From a bacterium (GTDB taxonomy: Bacteria > Cyanobacteriota > Vampirovibrionia > Gastranaerophilales > UBA9971), in the NCBI GenBank assembly GCA_037147175.1, contig JBAWVS010000001.1:43680-107679 (forward strand): a stretch of DNA of 64,000 nucleotides, read 5' to 3'. The translations under genes were made by a program, and so were the position numbers. This document shows positions 31,455 to 40,393 of the stretch, in pieces (positions within the stretch are counted from its first letter, which is position 1; each line of letters starts with the position of its first letter). The notes under the pieces were generated by a model, which saw nothing but the letters and a program-made list of their open reading frames with translations, had not been told where the DNA came from and ran no database searches.

Positions 31455-33440
31455 TTACTCTTTTAACCAGTCGTCAATATCTGTATTGCCTACCGATGGA
31501 GAAAGTTTTTCTTCAAAGCTTTCTCTTTGAGGCTTTTTTCGCAATATATTTTTAAAATATTCGAGAGGATTGTCTTTGCCTTTCCTCTCGGTTTCATTGA
31601 AAGCCCTTTTTACTTCTTCTTTATCGACATCGCAAATAGCGTTTTTAATATCATTCGCTTTGATTTTATGGTCAAGGCGTTTGAAATTAATAATCATTGC
31701 ATCTTCAAAATTTCTTTCCGCTACGGGAGGAAACTTTTTAGAGCCGTCCTGACTTGTCATAAAAGGCGGGCGCGGGAATCTTACAAAGATATACTGATTA
31801 AAATGCGGATGCCTGATGAGAAGTTTCCCTTTTTCAAGTACTGTTAATTCGGCTTTAATACTTGAAGGCATGACACTGTAGCCCTGAGAAGCCAGTTCGT
31901 CCATGTCCATACGTCCGTAAATACTTGTTCCGCAGTTTCCGACAATTCTTTTGTGAACCTGTGATTTAAACTGCTGTGCAGAAAAGAGGATTAAGCCCAA
32001 GTATCTTCCTCTTTCGGAAATTTCCAGCAGGGTTTGTTTGAGATAAGAATTTCCAGAGTCGCCGGAAGCGTATTTATTAAGCTCATCCACAAAAATTATG
32101 ACCTTATCAACGCCAAGTTTCTTGTTTTCAAGCTGTTCTTTCAGTTTTTCAACAGTTCTGGTAAACACCAAATCCTGAGCAATAGGAATCATTCCTGCTA
32201 TATCTACAACATAAACCCCTTTGTCTTTAAATTCTCCCCATGGTAAGTCATGCATGGAAGAATCATTAGTCACAAGTCCTTTGCAGCGGGTTTTTATGTT
32301 CATAAGCCTGTTATAAATTTTTCTTATTGTAGGGATTGCATGCCCTCTCCACTGTTGTTTCCCTTCGCCGTTGCCTTTTTCTTCATCTCCTGCTTCTGCG
32401 AAAATCCTCTGAAACCATTCTTCAAGGTCGTTAAAATTCTTTATTTTCTTATGTACGCAATAATGAGAATCCGGTTTATCTTGATTTATCACTTTTTCTT
32501 TCATGAAAGAAAGAAAAGCATCCGCCTTTGCATCGATATCATCATTGTTTAAAAGCACCTGCACATGGTCAAAAATCTCTTCCAAACCCCAGCTTAATGG
32601 ATTTACGTTGTGCATAAGGTGATCATTTGTTCTTAAGGTGTTTAAATTTACTCCGTCATCCTTATAAGGAGCGTAATATTCAACATTTTCAAAAGCATTT
32701 ACTTCCATACCAAGCTTTTTATACATTTCTTTTTCTTCTTCAGAAAGATTTTCCGCAGGCTGGTCAAGAAACAAAAGGTCATAACCTTTTACATTAAAAA
32801 GAACCGTAGCAATTTTTTCATTGTTATCGCTCTGATACTTTTGAAAAATGCTGCTCAAAAGGAATTCTATAATGCTGGTCTTTGTTGCAAGCCCTGAAAC
32901 TCCTGTAACATTCAAATGTGCGGCTTCCGGCCCTAAAAGGAAATTAGAATCAAGATAAACAGGAGATTGGTTTTCCCCGTTTACGTAAAGCCCGACAGGG
33001 ATTTGGGAATCTTCAAATTTATCCATTCTCAGGGATTTTTTTACGTCAGCATCCTCCGCCAGAAAGACATTTCCGATCGGGACAGGCTGAATAGGTTCTT
33101 CAGGTTCCATTTTTAAGACAGATGCCGTGTAATACCTTATTTCCGGTCTTTCTGTCTGGGCAAGGCGGTTTTCTTGAGGCTCCCTATCGGCACTTATGTA
33201 ATCATGCATCGGTGATTCCAGGTCGGTGTAGCTTATGCCTTCATTTACAATTCCGTAAATCGTTCTTTTGTATTCCGCATTTTTTTTATCGGAATAAACC
33301 CTGTCGCTCTCAATCTTGACAATGGTTCCAATTCCTACAGGAGAGTCAAGATTTGTCCAAAAACTGAAAGTCTGTGCAGTATTAGGCTTTTTTTCAGTTG
33401 CAACAACTCTTCCTATAACTTTATTTTCTGTTTCGTTCAT
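31455..33440 (-). CDS. herA: HerA-like (FtsK/HerA clade) ATPase with N-terminal HAS-barrel-like region and atypical P-loop
   Basis: N-terminus VIGRVVATEKKP..FSFWT...VGIGTIVKIE is barrel-like. Walker B VIIFVDELNKY. ILFSAQQFKSQVHKRIVGNCGTSIYGRM resembles the HerA xxQRPSxxxxxxxxQCNxxxxxR block. The P-loop reads TGVSGLATKTS rather than GxxGSGKS. Confidence 0.7.
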   Translation of the reverse strand: MNETENKVIGRVVATEKKPNTAQTFSFWTNLDSPVGIGTIVKIESDRVYSDKKNAEYKRTIYGIVNEGISYTDLESPMHDYISADREPQENRLAQTERPEIRYYTASVLKMEPEEPIQPVPIGNVFLAEDADVKKSLRMDKFEDSQIPVGLYVNGENQSPVYLDSNFLLGPEAAHLNVTGVSGLATKTSIIEFLLSSIFQKYQSDNNEKIATVLFNVKGYDLLFLDQPAENLSEEEKEMYKKLGMEVNAFENVEYYAPYKDDGVNLNTLRTNDHLMHNVNPLSWGLEEIFDHVQVLLNNDDIDAKADAFLSFMKEKVINQDKPDSHYCVHKKIKNFNDLEEWFQRIFAEAGDEEKGNGEGKQQWRGHAIPTIRKIYNRLMNIKTRCKGLVTNDSSMHDLPWGEFKDKGVYVVDIAGMIPIAQDLVFTRTVEKLKEQLENKKLGVDKVIIFVDELNKYASGDSGNSYLKQTLLEISERGRYLGLILFSAQQFKSQVHKRIVGNCGTSIYGRMDMDELASQGYSVMPSSIKAELTVLEKGKLLIRHPHFNQYIFVRFPRPPFMTSQDGSKKFPPVAERNFEDAMIINFKRLDHKIKANDIKNAICDVDKEEVKRAFNETERKGKDNPLEYFKNILRKKPQRESFEEKLSPSVGNTDIDDWLKE

Positions 33441-33503: not shown

Positions 33504-34565
33504 TCAAGAAAGACTTTCAATCATTGTCCAACCGGGAGCTTTTGCTTTCAAATAGTCTTCGCAGTATTTAATGGGATAAATCATCCTATCCCAACGTGAA
33601 GCAGGAAATCCGACTGGTTTTGTTTCCAGCAAAATCCATGAACTTATCTCATCAACTCTGCTAATAAGTTCTTTTTTAGCTGGAATTTCTACTCTTACAA
33701 TCCCAAAATCGTTTACACCATTGCGTTTGTCATGGTGCAGTCTTAAATACCATGTAAAAATATCTTTTTTCTTCCCTGTTTTATCATATGGTTGAAAAAC
33801 GCTTGAACGTTGACCTTTCTCCATAGAATAAAGTTCACACATCTTTTCAAAAGGGAAATAATAAACTCCGTGAGATTTGACTATTCCTGCAATATTTGAA
33901 CTTTCCAGAATATTTTGGCTTTTAGTATTCAAAGTCCCGTCCACAAAAAGCCAGCCGTCTTTAAATTTTGAGTCCAGCCATTTATTTGTCAGTTTATCTT
34001 CAATTTTTCTTCTTTTTTCCTGTATTTCACTGTGAGCCTGTTGGATAAATTCATCGGGGAATACGGGATAGGCTTTTCTTTTTCCCTGATTTGGAATTAT
34101 GCCGACATTTTTATAATTATTTTTTATTTTTTCGATTTCTTTAAGCTCAAAATAGTGTGAAGGGCAATTATTATTTTCTTTCACAGGAATATAAAAAATT
34201 CCCTCCCCTATTTCTAAGTCTGTAGAATGCAAAGTTTTATCAGTCCTTTTTAAAACTGCCGCTCCGACATAACCGTAAATAACAGGGATAGTCCGAAGAT
34301 AGCAAAGTATTTTTTTTCTTTCAATTCCGTCAAGAAAATAAGAAAACCCTGAAGCAGCTGTTTTTATTTGAATTTTTTTAAATTTTAATTCTCCGCAGGG
34401 TTCATCTTCTTTTATAATGTCTGCTTTTCTTTGTTCAAAATCATTTTCAGGTTTGGAAAAGTTATCATTTTCGGAATTAAAAAAAGTTTTGGGGATTTTT
34501 ATATCTTCCCCGTTAAGTTTTTTTTCTTTTATAAAACCCTGAAAAATTTTTAATTCTAAAGTCAT
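33504..34565 (-). CDS. nurA: NurA-like nuclease
   Basis: Two DG motifs at NurA-like spacing (YFLDGIERKK near residue 78, WLFVDGTLN near 210) and GIVKSHG. 353 aa, immediately upstream of herA. Confidence 0.6.
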   Translation of the reverse strand: MTLELKIFQGFIKEKKLNGEDIKIPKTFFNSENDNFSKPENDFEQRKADIIKEDEPCGELKFKKIQIKTAASGFSYFLDGIERKKILCYLRTIPVIYGYVGAAVLKRTDKTLHSTDLEIGEGIFYIPVKENNNCPSHYFELKEIEKIKNNYKNVGIIPNQGKRKAYPVFPDEFIQQAHSEIQEKRRKIEDKLTNKWLDSKFKDGWLFVDGTLNTKSQNILESSNIAGIVKSHGVYYFPFEKMCELYSMEKGQRSSVFQPYDKTGKKKDIFTWYLRLHHDKRNGVNDFGIVRVEIPAKKELISRVDEISSWILLETKPVGFPASRWDRMIYPIKYCEDYLKAKAPGWTMIESLS

Positions 34566-34702
34566 TTAAAACCCTTCTCTTTTGAATTAATTTTAAGGCT
34601 TATTATAAAATTTTGAAAGATATTTTTTAAATGAACTTCGCCGATATTTTATTATTTGTAATGACAAAAATATTTTGATTTTAAAATAATATAAAAATTT
34701 GC

Positions 34703-34780
34703 AAAAAAAATGCCGCTCTTTTTGGGGCGGCTACTAGACTCGGGGGAGGAGGTTTGGGTAGGGTCTTTATGACCTTACTT
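34703..34780 (-). ncRNA. Candidate sRNA, copy A (5' hairpin, C-rich anti-SD tract, intrinsic terminator)
   Basis: Minus-strand reading: GGUC-AUAAA-GACC, CUACCCAAACCUCCUCCCCCGAGUCUAGUA, GCCGC-loop-GCGGC, then A+U8. Strand and ends are inferred only. Confidence 0.35.
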
Positions 34781-34859
34781 TTACTATATCGGTATTTTAT
34801 TTTAAAACTTTAATGTTTTTTTAAAATAAAAAGGGAAATTTTTATTCCTGTTATTGAGC

Positions 34860-34935
34860 AAAAAAAATGCCGCTCTTTTGGGGCGGCTACTAGACTCGGG
34901 GGAGGAGGTTTGGGTATGGTCGATTAGGACCTTAC
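34860..34935 (-). ncRNA. Candidate sRNA, copy B (tandem duplicate of copy A, 157 bp away)
   Basis: The 58-nt core is identical to copy A except for a 1-nt indel in the terminator loop. The 5' hairpin keeps the GGUC/GACC stem with a different loop (CUAAUC). Confidence 0.35.
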
Positions 34936-34973
34936 ATTATTTGTTTCGACATTCTTTTATAAAAACTTTAATG

Positions 34974-35008
34974 ATTTCCTGCTTTTGTTACAACATCTTT
35001 ACAAAAAA
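34974..35008. promoter_or_regulatory. Conserved intergenic motif, copy 3 (looser)
   Basis: TTTCCTGCTTTTGTTACAACATCTTTACAAAAAAA aligns with the TTTTACAAA-n-CTTTACAAAAA end of copies 1 and 2. It abuts repeat unit B. Confidence 0.35.
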
Positions 35009-35250
35009 ACTCAACTTAAAATAATATTTTAATTAAAAATTTTTTAAAAAAAATACTGAAATTAAAAGAATTTTTAGACCCGATTAATGCCCGACCGTTT
35101 AAATTAATAACTCTTCAAAATAACATTATTTTTGAATATTAGACAGGCAGGTTATATAAAATTTTTGAATATTAAACAAAAATTAAACAGTATAAACAGT
35201 CGTTTAGTTTACCGTTTAAATACATGAGTATATTTTTGTAGGGAGGAAAA

Positions 35251-35373
35251 ATGAGTAACATTGCGGATGGTTTTTTAAGAATACTAAAAAGTCACTTATA
35301 TTTGTCATTTCCGATTATTTTGATTTCTATTCTTAATACTTTTATATTTATGTTTTTATTTAAAACTTTTTAA
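35251..35373 (+). CDS. Small hydrophobic protein (40 aa), below the ORF-track cutoff
   Basis: My translation: MSNIADGFLRILKSHLYLSFPIILISILNTFIFMFLFKTF. Strong SD GGGAGGA ends 4 nt before the ATG. One predicted TM helix. Confidence 0.45.
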   Translation: MSNIADGFLRILKSHLYLSFPIILISILNTFIFMFLFKTF

Positions 35374-35395: not shown

Positions 35396-35998
35396 TTATT
35401 TATTTTTCGAATTGTTTAATATTGTTAAAACGCTTTTTAGATGCTCTTCCAGTTCTTCTTTAGAAACATTATCCCTTACACCAAATAGAATTTCATTGTA
35501 ATATTTACCTTTTAATAGCGAAATTAAATGATCAGCATATTTTGAGGGAGAAGAGACCTGTATTAACCCTTTTGCTGCGGCTTTTGAAATAAATTTTTCC
35601 AGCATAATGTAGGTTATCGAAGGGCCTATGTTATAAAAATTCTTTGTTATGTTAGGATTAGTAGCCATTTCGCTTAAAACTATGCGATGAACCGCGCATA
35701 ATTTCTCGTCGATTACAAGTTTTAGAAAATTTTTGCAAAATTTTTCCAGTAAAATATCAAAATTTTCTTCAGTAACTTCTACGTCTTCAATATCTTTATA
35801 GTATTTTTTGCTTTGATTAATCACAATTTTTTGCAAAATAATTTGTTTATTTTCAAAATTATTATAAATAGTTTGCTTGGAAACACCTGCTTCTTTCGCC
35901 ACTTCATCCATAGAAGTGTTATTATAACCGCATTTTAAAAATAATTTAAAGGCGGCATTAAATATTAACTCTGATTTGTTTTTCATAATAATTCGCAT
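35396..35998 (-). CDS. TetR/AcrR-family transcriptional regulator
   Basis: HTH TSMDEVAKEAGVSKQTIYNNFENK. 200 aa; start may be the second Met at 35986. Confidence 0.9.
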   Translation of the reverse strand: MRIIMKNKSELIFNAAFKLFLKCGYNNTSMDEVAKEAGVSKQTIYNNFENKQIILQKIVINQSKKYYKDIEDVEVTEENFDILLEKFCKNFLKLVIDEKLCAVHRIVLSEMATNPNITKNFYNIGPSITYIMLEKFISKAAAKGLIQVSSPSKYADHLISLLKGKYYNEILFGVRDNVSKEELEEHLKSVLTILNNSKNK

Positions 35999-36771: not shown

Positions 36772-37818
36772 ATGACGTGTGTGATAAAAACAAATACTTT
36801 GCTTCCTGAATATAAGCATTCTGAGCAGGAAGCCATAGAACAATATAAAAATTGGGTATCGGAAAAAAGCCAATCGTTTCAAAACAAAGCAATAAAAATC
36901 TTTGAAAGTGCTGTTATAAAAGAAAAACATACAATTGCACCTGCTGAAGTTCTTTTTAGCAAAAGAACTTTTGAAGAAACAAATAATTTATACAAAGAAA
37001 AAGCAGTGGAATTTGGAACAAAAATTTTAGCGGATACATTGCAAAAAACAGAAATTAAACCTGAAGAATTGGACTTTATCATAACCACATCCTGTACAGG
37101 GTTTATGATTCCTTCATTTGATACTTATGTGATTAACAGTTTGGGATTGAGAAAAGACATAAAGAAGCTTCCGATAACCGAAATTGGTTGTGCGGCAGGA
37201 GCATCAGCATTAATTTATGCCAACGATTTTTTAAAAGCATATCCTGATAAGAAAGCAGCTGTTATTACTCTTGAATTTCCTAGTAATACAATCCAGTTGG
37301 ATGATTATAGCTGGGATAATATTGTAGGGACAGCATTATTTGCTGATGGAATAGGATGCGCAATACTGGGAGAAAATATTCGGGGGTGTCCTGAAATTAT
37401 TGATTCACAAATGCATCAGGTGGTCGATACAACTGAAATTTTAGGTTATAACATTACAAACACAGGTTTGAAAATGAATCTCGATAAAACTATTCCGAAT
37501 GTGATTGAAGAACATTTTGAACAGATAGTTTCGGATTTTTTAAACACAAATGGCTTAAAAATAGAAGATGTAGACCATTTTCTGATTCATCCGGGCGGAA
37601 TAAAAATTCTTAACAAAATTGAAAATATTCTTTCTAAATATAATAAAAATGTCGATATTTCCAGAAAAATTATGGAAACATACGGCAATTTATCGAGCAG
37701 TACAATACTTTTTATTTTAAATGAATATATGAATAATACTGCCGCTGGAGAAACTGCTTTAGTATTGAGCTTTGGTCCCGGATTTTCAGCGCATCAGTTA
37801 CTTTTAAGATGGAATTAA
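36772..37818 (+). CDS. Type III polyketide synthase (chalcone/stilbene synthase family)
   Basis: Catalytic Cys (TTSCTGFMIPS), His (FLIHPGGIKIL) and Asn (YGNLSSSTILF), plus the GPGF loop. 348 aa. Confidence 0.9.
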   Translation: MTCVIKTNTLLPEYKHSEQEAIEQYKNWVSEKSQSFQNKAIKIFESAVIKEKHTIAPAEVLFSKRTFEETNNLYKEKAVEFGTKILADTLQKTEIKPEELDFIITTSCTGFMIPSFDTYVINSLGLRKDIKKLPITEIGCAAGASALIYANDFLKAYPDKKAAVITLEFPSNTIQLDDYSWDNIVGTALFADGIGCAILGENIRGCPEIIDSQMHQVVDTTEILGYNITNTGLKMNLDKTIPNVIEEHFEQIVSDFLNTNGLKIEDVDHFLIHPGGIKILNKIENILSKYNKNVDISRKIMETYGNLSSSTILFILNEYMNNTAAGETALVLSFGPGFSAHQLLLRWN

Positions 37819-38411
37819 AAAAAATGAACAAAAAGAAAAAAATATTATTAATAGACTTACACCCTGACAGTCAAAGTTTTTGCTCTGTTATGGCACAAAA
37901 ATACGTAGACGGTGCTATTGCTTCAGAATTTGAGGTGAAAATTATCAAGGTCAGAGAATTGAATTTCGATAATGTGCTTCATTTCGGTTATAGAGAAATT
38001 CAAGCTCTTGAACCAGACTTGATTCAAGCACAGGAAGAAATTAAGTGGTGCAGCCACCTTGTATTTATCACTCCAGTGTGGTGGGGCTCTATTCCTTCCA
38101 GTGCAAAGGGCTTTATTGACAGAGTTTTATTAAGCGGATTTTCTTATAAGTTTGATATAAAGAAAAAAAGACCTGTCGGTTTACTGAAAAACAGGTCGGC
38201 AAGCGTGATTTATACACAGGGAGCGCCTTTTATTTACAGCAAATTTTTTACAGGAGATGCCTTCTGGAATTTTATGAAAATTTGTATTCTTCAGTTTTGC
38301 GGCTTTTCAAACATTAAAAGAAAATGCTTTGATAAAGTAAAGTCGGGAACAGATAAAGAAAGATTGAAAATTTTAAACGAAACTTATGAACTTGGAAAAA
38401 AAGGATTTTAA
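37809..38411 (+). CDS. Flavodoxin-like-fold NAD(P)H (quinone) oxidoreductase family protein
   Basis: KILLIDLHPDSQSF and ITPVWWGSIPSSAKGFIDRV resemble the NQO1/MdaB/KefF family. Alternative start at 37824. Confidence 0.7.
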   Translation: MELKKMNKKKKILLIDLHPDSQSFCSVMAQKYVDGAIASEFEVKIIKVRELNFDNVLHFGYREIQALEPDLIQAQEEIKWCSHLVFITPVWWGSIPSSAKGFIDRVLLSGFSYKFDIKKKRPVGLLKNRSASVIYTQGAPFIYSKFFTGDAFWNFMKICILQFCGFSNIKRKCFDKVKSGTDKERLKILNETYELGKKGF

Positions 38412-38414
38412 GAT

Positions 38415-39182
38415 ATGACTATTCATGACAACAAGTCCAAATTACAACTTCTGGAAGATGTGGGATTTGTAAAATATTTTACCGGAAACTCATGGAGTGA
38501 GTATAACAGGAAATTTTTTGATAATCTTGCCAAAAAATATGATGCCACAAACGCTTTGCATAGCTTTGGCACGAAAAGTATTATTGACAAAAAATCAATT
38601 GAAAAAATCCATTTTCCTGTAAACGCCTCTGTGCTTGATTTATGTACAGGAAGTGGAGATATCTGCATTAGGATAGCAAAGAAACATCCTGATTTTAAAA
38701 TTATAGCTCTCGATGCATCGGAAAAAATGCTTGAAATAGCAAAACAAAAAGCAAAAGGCTGCAATAATATTGATTTTGTAAAAGGTGACGCCTTAAGCCT
38801 GCCTTATGAAGATAATTCATTTGATGTTTTAATAATAAGTTTCGGACTTCGGAATCTTGAAAATATTCAGGCAGGACTTAAAGAAATGCAAAGAGTTGTA
38901 AAATCCGGCGGTTATGTAGTTAATATTGATCAGGGAAAACCTGAAAATCCTGTCTTTAAAGCTCTTTATCAAGTTTATTTTTACGGCATAGCTCCATTAA
39001 TAGGGAAATTAATTTTTCATATGGGAGAATTTAATTCTTTCAAATATTTGCCCGAATCTAACAAATATTTTCCTTCCCAGCAAGAACTTGTGAAAATTTT
39101 TGAAGAAGTCGGATTTAAAGATATAAATAATTACAATTACTGGCTTGGCGCGATTTCTCAACAAATTGCGAGGGTCGAATAA
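38415..39182 (+). CDS. ubiE: UbiE/MenG-family quinone C-methyltransferase
   Basis: FDNLAKKYDATNALHSFG, SAM motif LDLCTGSGD, and YLPESNKYFPSQQELVKIFEEVGF match UbiE/MenG blocks. Confidence 0.8.
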   Translation: MTIHDNKSKLQLLEDVGFVKYFTGNSWSEYNRKFFDNLAKKYDATNALHSFGTKSIIDKKSIEKIHFPVNASVLDLCTGSGDICIRIAKKHPDFKIIALDASEKMLEIAKQKAKGCNNIDFVKGDALSLPYEDNSFDVLIISFGLRNLENIQAGLKEMQRVVKSGGYVVNIDQGKPENPVFKALYQVYFYGIAPLIGKLIFHMGEFNSFKYLPESNKYFPSQQELVKIFEEVGFKDINNYNYWLGAISQQIARVE

Positions 39183-40393
39183 TGAAATTATCGATTGCTA
39201 CAAATTTTGATAATGAATTAATAGAACAAATAAAAGATTATCCTGTCGAAGAGCTTTATGGAAAACTTTCAAAGGACTTTGTCGGAGGAGGAAGATCTTC
39301 CTATATGCTTGCACCTGTTGAAAAAAACATATTAGTAGAACATATAGCCCATGCAAAAAAATACAATATAGGATTCAATTATCTTTTGAATGCAAGTTGT
39401 ATAGATAACCTTGAAACAACCAGAGATGGGCAGAAACAAATCAGAAAATTGCTGGACTGGCTTACAAAAATAGGCGTAACTTCACTTACTGTGTCGACTC
39501 CATTTTTATTGCAGACAATAAAAAAGAGTTATCCGCACTTTCGTGTGAGAATTTCTGTTTTTGCGTGTGTTAATAACCTTAGAAAAGCACAATACTGGGA
39601 AGAAATGGGTGCAGATATAATTGCGCTTGATTCGCATGTATTAAACAAAGATTTTAAAACACTCAAGCTTTTAAAAGAAAAACTTTCCTGCGGGATGGAA
39701 ATTTTGACTAACGGAAATTGCCTTATGAATTGCATGATGGCTCATGTGCATCCGAATTTAATGGCTCATAGCTCGCAATCAAAGCATACTTCCGACGGAT
39801 TTGTTATAGACCACTGTTTTTTGTACTGTCAAAAAAAGAAAACGGAAGAACCCGCAAATTATTTAAAGTCAGACTGGATACGCCCTGAGGATATACATTA
39901 CTATGAAGAAATAGGCTATGAAAACTTTAAGCTGGTAGAAAGAAATATCAAAACGGAAGAAATGGTAAAAAGAGTAAAAGCTTATTCCAATCGTTCTTAT
40001 GACGGAAACTTACTTGATTTGGTTCAGGGGTTTGGATTTAAGGACCAACAAAAACTTTCAGCAAATTCAAAGTTTAATAAACTGGCATTTTTCTTTAAAC
40101 CTACAAAAATTAATATGTTTAAATTAAATAAAATTAAAGAACTCTGCACAAGAAAAGGAATGTTGTTGCCGCTTAAATCTGTTCCCGTTTATATTGATAA
40201 CAAAAAACTGGATGGATTTATTGAACCTTTTTTAAAAAGATCCTGTATGGATTTAAATTGCGGGATTGACTGCAAACATTGCGATTACTATGCCGACAAA
40301 GTTATCACAATTGATACTGCATTTCAAAAAGATTGTATTCAACTCCATAAAGATATAGATGATGATATTTATTCAGGAAAAATGTGGAAATAA
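39182..40393 (+). CDS. U32-peptidase-family-like protein (possible UbiU/UbiV-type Fe-S hydroxylase)
   Basis: N-terminus MKLSIATNFDNELIEQI, FNYLLNA, and the Cys cluster EILTNGNCLMNCMMAH...DHCFLYC recall U32 (PF01136) members. Recognised from memory only. The ATG overlaps the ubiE stop. Confidence 0.5.
   Translation: MKLSIATNFDNELIEQIKDYPVEELYGKLSKDFVGGGRSSYMLAPVEKNILVEHIAHAKKYNIGFNYLLNASCIDNLETTRDGQKQIRKLLDWLTKIGVTSLTVSTPFLLQTIKKSYPHFRVRISVFACVNNLRKAQYWEEMGADIIALDSHVLNKDFKTLKLLKEKLSCGMEILTNGNCLMNCMMAHVHPNLMAHSSQSKHTSDGFVIDHCFLYCQKKKTEEPANYLKSDWIRPEDIHYYEEIGYENFKLVERNIKTEEMVKRVKAYSNRSYDGNLLDLVQGFGFKDQQKLSANSKFNKLAFFFKPTKINMFKLNKIKELCTRKGMLLPLKSVPVYIDNKKLDGFIEPFLKRSCMDLNCGIDCKHCDYYADKVITIDTAFQKDCIQLHKDIDDDIYSGKMWK

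Follow-up and report, generated by a model that had tools for sequence, protein, structure and literature searches.

Tandem candidate genes for an anti-Shine-Dalgarno small RNA upstream of nurA in a Gastranaerophilales genome

We analysed a stretch of 64,000 nucleotides (64 kb) from the genome of a Gastranaerophilales bacterium (Vampirovibrionia; GenBank assembly GCA_037147175.1, contig JBAWVS010000001.1). We call this whole stretch the window, and we use its coordinates throughout. Upstream of nurA, the first gene of a nurA-herA-mre11-rad50-like operon, the window contains two nearly identical units in tandem. These units are probably paralogous genes for a trans-acting regulatory RNA of ~75 nt, which would be transcribed from the minus strand (the strand of nurA) and would block Shine-Dalgarno (SD) regions. 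The locus is real, strongly constrained, and previously uncatalogued; as an RNA family it is new, but its kind is well known, so it is not something categorically new. Melainabacteria (Vampirovibrionia) are the non-photosynthetic sister group of the Cyanobacteria, and they are known almost entirely from metagenomes. Our search of the literature found no paper describing small RNAs in Melainabacteria/Vampirovibrionia, and the locus is a concrete candidate for a riboregulator, with very strong constraint and with defined boundaries, promoter block, and seed.

The window has a G+C content of ~33%. The units lie in an 830-bp spacer between a TetR-family gene (35396-35998, minus strand) and the first gene of the nurA operon, where they stand out as two G+C-rich islands that are direct repeats with a period of 156/157 bp. 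A repeat search found two families there: D5 (34701-34726 and 34858-34883, spacing 157) and D2 (34720-34765 and 34876-34921, spacing 156, 98%). The cores (34701-34760 and 34858-34916, 59/60 nt) are therefore identical except for an indel of one T in a hairpin loop (T5 vs. T4). The first substitution between the units is at 34761 (G vs. T). A 24-mer taken from the core has exactly two matches in the 64 kb and had none in 100 dinucleotide-preserving shuffles. The two units are thus a real, non-random duplication, and the repeat search and the shuffle test bear out a preliminary description of this DNA, which had placed tandem units with a near-identical core at 34701-34815 and 34858-34973. It had also placed a second conserved block beyond the core, and that block, AAAACTTTAATG, is indeed present at 34804-34815 and 34962-34973.

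We use A for the nurA-distal unit and B for the nurA-proximal unit. R1 is a covariance model that we built from 14 distinct copies of the element. The parts of the two copies are:

34703..34782, minus strand: candidate small RNA (sRNA) gene, copy B (R1 match at 34701-34782, minus strand, 96.6 bits; type-B homologues lie upstream of nurA)
From ~34782/34778 to the U-tract at 34703-34710, minus strand: predicted transcript of copy B, ~76-80 nt
34758..34778, minus strand: 5' hairpin of copy B, GUA-A-GGUC, loop AUAAA, GACC-C-UAC (from folding)
34732..34757, minus strand: predicted unpaired seed tract of copy B, 5'-CCCAAACCUCCUCCCCCGAGUCUAGUA-3', which includes ACCUCCU (from minimum-free-energy folds and invariance across genomes)
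34712..34731, minus strand: 3' hairpin of copy B, GCCGC(C)...(G)A-GCGGC, followed by A and U8; putative intrinsic terminator
34703-34710, minus strand: U8 of copy B (A8 on the plus strand)
34789..34817, minus strand: promoter-like block of copy B, with TTAAAG at 34808-34813, 16 nt, CGA at 34789-34791, 10 nt, and GUAAGG
4 nt ahead of GUAAGG, minus strand: TATAGT, -10-like hexamer of copy B
34860..34939, minus strand: candidate sRNA gene, copy A (R1 match at 34858-34939, minus strand, 95.4 bits; type-A homologues)
34860-34867, 34869-34887, 34888-34913, and 34914-34935, minus strand: U-tract, 3' hairpin, seed, and 5' hairpin of copy A
34946..34975, minus strand: promoter-like block of copy A, with TTAAAG at 34966-34971, 17 nt, CGA at 34946-34948, 10 nt, and GUAAGG

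In the alignment of all copies, the order on the nurA strand is (A/T)TCATTAAAG, 16/17 variable nt, CGA, 10 variable nt, GUAAGGYC-loop-GACCAUAC, CCAAAACCUCCUCCCCGAGUCUAGUA, GCCGCC-loop-GAGCGGC, N, and U8. A GGUC/GACC hairpin with different loops in the two copies (AUAAA vs. CUAAUC) and an unpaired CCCAAACCUCCUCCCCC tract had been described for this strand, and both are present. The 5' hairpin has 3+4 bp around an A-A mismatch, and in most type-A copies a C-A mismatch weakens it. Between the hairpins, the C/U-rich seed tract (CCCAAAACCUCCUCCCCGAGUCUAGUA; within it ...AAAACCUCCUCCCCGAG...) is 26-27 nt long, and minimum-free-energy folds predict it to be single-stranded except for a weak helix of 3 bp (CUC/GAG). 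It includes ACCUCCU, which has the letters of the canonical anti-SD core of 16S rRNA. The complement of the seed motif, GGGGAGGAGG, is an over-perfect SD. The 3' hairpin has 5-6 bp and is followed by U8. In intrinsic terminators, a GC-rich stem of 5 bp or more closes a short loop, and a U-tract follows within 0-2 nt; here, a GCCGC/GCGGC stem is followed 1 nt later by U8, and this arrangement is kept in ~20 copies.

Upstream of each core, every full-length copy in the alignment has the same register, TTAAAG-N16/17-CGA-N10-GTAAGG, while the spacers vary in sequence. In the 64 kb, the two units are the only places with this motif (0.37 occurrences are expected). A fixed register over variable spacers reads as the signature of a bipartite promoter, and TTAAAG-N16/17-CGA might correspond to the promoters of extracytoplasmic function (ECF) sigma factors, which it recalls. 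TAnnnT hexamers (TAAAAT or TATAGT in type B, TAGAGT or TAATGT in type A) lie just ahead of GUAAGG or overlap it. The -10-like hexamer of type A sits 4 nt further downstream, which suggests that transcription of type A may start inside the 5' arm of the hairpin. This could be why the 5' hairpin is not maintained in type A.

We searched for the element in related genomes with two probes. A 20-mer that is specific to this genome's variant of the seed (AAACC.. vs. AAAACC..) gave only a chance match in the genome-contig collection, to a high-GC contig from Bryobacterales. A degenerate 22-nt pattern that spans both seed variants matched 10 metagenome contigs, and 5 of the 10 have two copies, which are 157-298 bp apart. 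Overall, at least 11 other metagenomic genomes have the element upstream of nurA, and most often there are two copies in tandem. (We refer to related loci by L numbers.) In the genomes with the element, NurA is 55-78% identical to the window's protein; for example, L023/L024, whose NurA is 59% identical, also hold the pair, with the element unchanged. The NurA-like protein is also found on the contig GCA_964509135.1, from a metagenome-assembled genome.

Wherever the downstream side is visible (the window, L007-L009, L011, L012, L016, L018-L020, and L023), a type-B copy lies directly upstream of nurA and on the same strand. Type-A copies are present in L011, L015, L016, L017, L019, L020, and L023. 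Co-occurrence with nurA holds for type B but not always for type A, which in L015 lies with ORF40 (a small gene described below) beside a convergent gene and without nurA. Also, four loci (L010, L021, L022, and L025, with NurA 54-74% identical) have kept nurA and have no copy of the element within 4-10 kb. L018 and L013 have a lone type B in front of nurA. Because type A stands apart in L015 and type B stands alone in L018 and L013, the units are separable genes instead of one composite leader, and they appear to behave as independent genes.

Many of the contigs end within the element. The contigs of L007, L008, and L009 (NurA 76-78% identical) end inside it, ~57-355 nt upstream of nurA, and so do the short contigs L002 and L006, which are of the same strain. 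These five independent short-read contigs break where the last copy-specific 31-mer ends. Word-based assemblers would stop at the 41-nt segment that is common to both copies, as it exceeds their word length. If so, then these genomes also hold at least two copies, and the duplicated identical segment interrupts assembly from short reads immediately ahead of nurA.

About 40 consecutive nt (GACCAUACCCAAAACCUCCUCCCCGAGUCUAGUAGCCGCC; GACC...GCCGCC) are identical in all copies, with one difference: the A-run is one A shorter in this genome, and the C-run has one C more. Among the same genomes, the four-fold-type sites of nurA are only 35-65% identical, which is saturated. Because the core is invariant while these sites are saturated, the core must be under strong purifying selection. 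Within the element, the variation is concentrated in the loops. The stem of the 3' hairpin is invariant in the 14 distinct copies, and its loop varies in both sequence and length (CCCAAAAAGA, CUAAAAAGA, CCGAAAAGA, CAAAGAA, and CAUUAA). Similarly, GGUC/GACC is invariant in type B, and the 5' loop varies (AAAA, UAAC, UCAA, AUCAAA, AUUUGAA, and AUCUAAA; 4-9 nt across all copies). Every copy retains the T-tract, which follows the GC stem after 1 variable nt; where the tract differs, it does so at the distal end only (TTTTTCTTT or T7), as would be expected for a terminator. Sequence similarity stops abruptly after T8. Invariant stems and an invariant linker, together with variable loops, fit an RNA with two hairpins and a putative functional single strand.

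The element is confined to this locus. In 208 kb, comprising the window and the related loci, R1 found nothing outside the locus, and it had no matches on viral contigs. A generic dispersed repeat, which had been named as an outcome that would undermine the RNA gene reading, is not what we see. Across the window, the related loci, and the metagenome contigs, the element is at a single locus, with at most two copies, in one clade.

From these features we infer that each unit is transcribed from its own bipartite promoter (TTAAAG-N16/17-CGA), with the 5' end of the RNA ~10 nt further on, at GUAAGG. Transcription would end at the unit's own terminator (the GCCGC/GCGGC hairpin and U8). The short 5' hairpin and the terminator hairpin would hold the C/U-rich tract open, and the tract, with its ACCUCCU, could pair with the purine-rich ribosome-binding sites (GGAGG/GGGGAGGAGG) of target mRNAs. 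Pairing would keep the 30S subunit off these mRNAs, so translation would be repressed by occlusion of the SD. The proposed repression would depend on the RNA stretch CCUCCUCC. We propose occlusion of the SD because the invariant, predicted unpaired tract resembles an anti-SD sequence and because Yfr1 and RsaE/RoxS (compared below) have a matching design. C-rich seeds that pair with SD sequences had been cited as a known design of sRNAs, and this is true of RsaE/RoxS (PMC6158497). As the two copies have a common seed and different upstream regions, they would probably give one repressor two regulatory inputs, or they might simply increase its dose.

Several results weigh against this proposal. 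First, the candidate targets are not compelling. We computed the duplex energy of the seed with each of the 51 translation starts in the window, and none was a target above background. The best starts (-21 to -22 kcal/mol, in the 1% tail of random windows) owe their energies to upstream coding sequence and not to SDs. The starts of nurA, herA, mre11, and rad50 pair poorly (-5 to -10 kcal/mol). Elsewhere in the window and the related loci, there is no complement of at least 10 nt to the seed; we found only generic SD complementarity. Second, no known family matched: cmscan with the 4227 families of Rfam 15 found nothing at the gathering score across the whole window, and at E ≤ 10 it found only noise over 34560-35260 (an RprA-like terminator and snoRNAs). 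(We found no tRNA or tmRNA genes, either.) Third, the terminator is not the textbook one that had been described. The hairpin and U8 are there, but the stem has just 5 bp (6 with a bulged A), the loop has 8-10 nt in the window, and a consensus scan with a fixed rule (loop of 3-8) called 0 sites at the window's copies. The scanner missed them because the loop of this terminator, at 6-10 nt, goes beyond the rule.

Fourth, there is no covariation. None of the 13 pairs shows a compensated change; 12 never vary, and the other, which belongs to the 5' hairpin, is U-A except in six type-A copies, where it is C-A. The case for the structure therefore comes from thermodynamics and from the variability of the loops. 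Duplicated trans-acting sRNA genes with an anti-SD seed and a terminator, as proposed from the window alone, are still the best fit to the comparative evidence, but the structure-preserving covariation that was to back them is absent, because the stems are invariant. Finally, folding favours the other strand. The consensus fold from RNAalifold has -22.3 kcal/mol on the plus strand vs. -11.0 on the minus strand, and the single-sequence folds agree, with z-scores on the plus strand that are equal or better. At four positions, a G-U pair of the plus strand corresponds to an A-C or C-A mismatch in the minus-strand RNA, including one in the middle of the 5' hairpin in most type-A copies (GGCC...GACC).

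The same two genes might be transcribed from the plus strand instead, to give a G-rich RNA that acts as a decoy with SD or GGA motifs. It would have A8, a GCCGCU/GGCGGC hairpin, UACUAGACUCGGGGAGGAGGUUUU, a GGGUAUGGUC/GACCUUACUU hairpin, and a U-rich tail. Such an RNA could be a sponge of a C-rich RNA, or it could titrate a CsrA-like protein or the 3' end of 16S rRNA. Among cyanobacterial RNAs, the analogue would be Yfr2, which has a motif complementary to that of Yfr1. Yfr2-type RNAs do exist, and their genes are multi-copy (PMC6778093). Besides the more stable fold, one-sided changes preserve pairs on the plus strand alone: U-A changes to U-G at columns 65/77 (6 copies), G-U changes to G-C at columns 57/85 (5 copies), and a U-G is constant at 17/26. 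The substitution that gives C-A on the minus strand is a wobble pair (U-G) here, and the helices are longer by three further G-U or G-C pairs. Also, a U-rich run after the second hairpin (UUACUUUUAUUUUAU) could terminate transcription. Yet the plus strand is rich in G and U, so extra wobble pairs are expected there. The evidence comes down to about two independent substitutions, and the constant U-G at 17/26 is accounted for equally well on the minus strand, where C pairs with G and an A is bulged.

Other features of the alignment argue for the minus strand. The T8 begins 1 nt past a GC stem, no copy lacks it, and its changes are all distal; read on the plus strand, it is a conserved A8 immediately 5' of a GC hairpin, as the complement of a terminator would be. 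The register of the three upstream blocks is fixed although their spacers vary, as in a bipartite promoter; on the plus strand, the TTAAAG and CGA blocks would be in a 3' tail, where there is no obvious reason for a fixed register. And conservation ends sharply after T8, so that on the plus strand it would begin abruptly at A8 with no conserved block upstream. We therefore favour the minus strand over the plus strand, fairly clearly if not overwhelmingly, and we consider a decoy RNA from the plus strand to be unlikely.

We also considered some products of the plus strand and rejected them. A peptide that begins ATGCCGCTC... has 20 amino acids in unit 1, and in unit 2 the indel of one T in the loop shifts its frame. 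Mini-ORFs (open reading frames) with an SD and AUG in the hairpin range from 3 to >15 codons, and neither their length nor their frame is conserved, which is a further point against plus-strand function. A G-quadruplex had been suggested, but the third and fourth G3 tracts are only in the window's copy 1 (TAGGG); every other copy has TATGG. The first plus-strand stem does extend through a G-U pair in this genome (7-8 bp), as had been described, but this is not a general feature, as the relatives have 6-7 bp.

The remaining alternatives involve the neighbouring genes:

33504..34565, minus strand: nurA, at the head of nurA-herA-mre11-rad50 (PF09376 NurA is present in homologues, one of which NCBI named NurA)
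34987..35003, plus strand: direct repeat GTTACA-N5-TTTACA with an 11-bp register, between the promoter-like block of copy A and the leader of ORF40
35251..35373, plus strand: ORF40, encoding a hydrophobic protein of 40 amino acids (MSNIADGFLRILKSHLYLSFPIILISILNTFIFMFLFKTF), with the SD GGGAGG; divergent from copy A and a candidate target as its neighbour in cis

The start of nurA at 34565 is ~135 nt downstream of copy B on the minus strand, and the downstream ORFs match Mre11/SbcD and Rad50. The homologues that are named NurA come from Gastranaerophilales and Melainabacteria. (The window's glutamine synthetase, GlnA, is in a 90%-identity cluster with proteins from "Candidatus Melainabacteria bacterium GWA2_34_9" and "Cyanobacteria bacterium UBA9971," which places the host among the Melainabacteria.) The window's proteins at the HerA position (31455-33440, minus strand) and at the NurA position do not themselves match any family in Pfam or NCBIfam, although some homologues of NurA carry PF09376; we consider the two window proteins to be divergent bacterial NurA/HerA proteins. 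In the relatives, the nurA operon is interrupted by inserted genes (HEPN/NTase, PIN, or HigB) or is split (L008, L010, and L022).

ORF40 is 82-95% identical by tblastn in L011, L015, L017, L019, L020, and L023, and it is always beside type A. Its codon alignment across seven genomes, including the window, has synonymous changes, which indicates that it is conserved and truly coding. It has 4 matching clusters in a database of 5.8 billion proteins, none of them annotated. The ~200 bp upstream of it (~35030-35250) are highly conserved, and they include a possible promoter, TTGAAT-17-TATAAA, at ~35133-35161. ORF40 could be a type I toxin-like peptide or a small regulatory membrane peptide. The GTTACA-N5-TTTACA repeat, which is nearly invariant in 7 genomes, is upstream of copy A only. 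It resembles operators of the OmpR/PhoB type or HLR1-like operators, and a gene for a response regulator is two genes away in L011 and L015. The repeat is possibly an operator for a protein of the response-regulator type.

A special case of our proposal is that the RNAs are antitoxin-like partners of ORF40, in a module that resembles a type I toxin-antitoxin system beside a DNA-repair operon. ORF40 is always divergent from type A and stays with it in L015, which lacks nurA. Of the 51 starts in the window, only one exceeds its SD/start region in the strength of anti-SD pairing, and this region pairs with the seed at -16 to -17 kcal/mol, over 7-9 bp, in all seven genomes. Tandem genes for antitoxin sRNAs (agrA/agrB) and control by DNA damage (tisB, dinQ) are known for this kind of layout. 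However, there is no complementarity of 18 nt or more, the pairing ranks near the 4th-5th percentile when compared with random 60-nt windows, and it looks essentially like generic SD pairing. Type B is found without ORF40 nearby in L018 and L013, and ORF40 matches no toxin family. These points make an antitoxin role doubtful. A site upstream of ORF40, at 35137-35155 (UAYUARAC.GGC.GGUUA; -15 to -19 kcal/mol), forms the best duplex in two of the seven genomes, but we rejected it because it has an A-C mismatch in the other five. It probably lies between the -35 and the -10 of TTGAAT-17-TATAAA, in a promoter spacer and not in the mRNA.

The units might instead act in cis, as a leader or attenuator of nurA-herA-mre11-rad50. 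In that case, transcription would start at the unit's promoter and would mostly end at U8, and the amount of the double-strand-break repair genes' expression would depend on regulated read-through. The constant position of type B would be natural for a leader, and the gap to the start of nurA is as short as ~57-60 nt. But the distance from T8 to nurA ranges from ~57 to ~355 nt, and in L009 and L011 an unrelated insert of 120-300 nt lies in between. Hexamers like those of sigma-70 promoters are found between the terminator and nurA (TTTAAA-18-TATAAT at 34631-34602 by a scan; TTGCAA-17-TAAAAT in L007 by eye). Type A occurs apart from nurA in L015, and nurA occurs without the element in four loci. 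The folds predict no alternative helix that could serve as an antiterminator, and no fold that evidently binds a ligand or a protein. A terminator does not need an invariant single strand of 26 nt, and the seed pairs weakly with the start region of nurA (-9.9 kcal/mol). Terminator or attenuator modules that gate nurA, the other possibility in the preliminary description, are thus quite unlikely.

A DNA-level element, such as a repeated binding site for a protein or a palindrome-containing repeat like the repetitive extragenic palindromes (REP) or miniature inverted-repeat transposable elements (MITE), would account for stems that never covary, for the recurrence of sequence like TACTAGAC + G-rich upstream of ORF40, and for short-read assemblies that break inside the element, but we consider it very improbable: each genome fragment has at most two copies at one syntenic locus, with none elsewhere in the 208 kb or on viral contigs, the element lacks terminal inverted repeats and target-site duplications, the 41-nt identical segment could explain why contigs break there, and an asymmetric invariant core of 40 nt with variable loops and T8 is unlike operators or REP elements.

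Two other observations concern the surroundings of the units. The inserts between the type-B terminator and nurA (L009 51-345 and L011 2355-2466) are richer in G+C, are ~69% alike, are absent from the window, and do not match Rfam; they could be another non-coding RNA, the remnant of a gene, or a small mobile element. Beyond the TetR gene, 36772-40393 (plus strand) encodes a type III polyketide synthase-like protein, a flavodoxin-like FMN reductase, a UbiE-type methyltransferase, and a U32 peptidase, which are possibly a pathway for a quinone or for an alkylresorcinol-type compound.

We now compare trans-acting sRNA genes, as we propose the units to be, with known systems. The closest resemblance is to Yfr1 of cyanobacteria, an RNA of 54-69 nt in which an unpaired, ultraconserved ACUCCUCACAC stands between a 5' stem-loop and a terminator (PMC2190773, Voss et al. 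2007), and which acts at ribosome-binding regions through pairing of this motif (PMC6974561, Brenes-Álvarez et al. 2020). The size class is similar (54-69 nt vs. ~75 nt here). Yfr1 has, and the units here are predicted to have, a 5' stem-loop, possibly interrupted by an internal loop, then a C/U-rich, unpaired, ultraconserved motif between the hairpins, and then a GC-rich 3' hairpin and U-tail as a Rho-independent terminator. The host phyla are sister groups. On the other hand, the motif here is ACCUCCUCCCC, and the Yfr1 undecanucleotide is not present; the two motifs have only CUCCUC in common. The unpaired region is 26-27 nt here vs. 16-20 nt in Yfr1. Yfr1 is defined by a 5' stem-loop of 6-10 bp, in which a bulge or internal loop is allowed, and a 3' hairpin of 6-9 bp, as compared to 3+4 bp and 5-6 bp here. 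Also unlike Yfr1, the gene is present in two tandem copies, and the synteny is with ORF40 and nurA, not with guaB/trxA. No Rfam model matches at E ≤ 10, and we do not claim that the element is a member of the Yfr1 family.

RsaE/RoxS and the staphylococcal sRNAs with UCCC motifs have unpaired C-rich motifs that pair with G-rich SD sequences and block initiation, and their seed is duplicated (PMC6158497). The duplication takes a different form, as their C-rich motif (CCCC/UCCC) is repeated inside one RNA of ~100 nt, while here there is one CU-rich tract per gene and two genes. There is no similarity to RsaE/RoxS in sequence or by model, and the phylum, the length, and the fold are different.

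In divergent type I toxin-antitoxin loci, such as tisB/istR-1, dinQ/agrAB, and zorO/orzO, an sRNA gene is divergent from a gene for a small membrane peptide. The locus is similar in that the candidate sRNA genes are divergent from a small ORF that encodes a hydrophobic protein and has a long, conserved leader (7 genomes), in having tandem sRNA paralogues (as with agrA/agrB), and in its link to DNA damage, by neighbourhood here or by regulation. Unlike those systems, we did not find an antisense complementarity of ~18-30 nt to the ORF40 mRNA, and the seed looks like a generic anti-SD, not a dedicated one. Terminators and attenuators also have a GC-rich hairpin and U8 on the strand of the downstream operon, but here the hairpin is preceded by the unit's own promoter-like block and by a long invariant single strand, the element occurs apart from nurA, and there is no antiterminator. 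REP and MITE elements would be expected at many unrelated loci, while this element is only at the syntenic locus, with at most two copies (208 kb).

More speculatively, by analogy, the pair might be a melainabacterial descendant of the ancestor of Yfr1, recruited into a module like tisB/istR that holds down the membrane peptide ORF40 beside an operon for the repair of double-strand breaks. We consider this a long shot. If common ancestry with Yfr1 were true, then a riboregulator of the anti-SD type would pre-date the split between the photosynthetic and the non-photosynthetic Cyanobacteriota. In any case, the likeness to Yfr1 opens the question of whether the cyanobacterial lineage as a whole inherited CU-rich anti-SD sRNAs from its ancestor.

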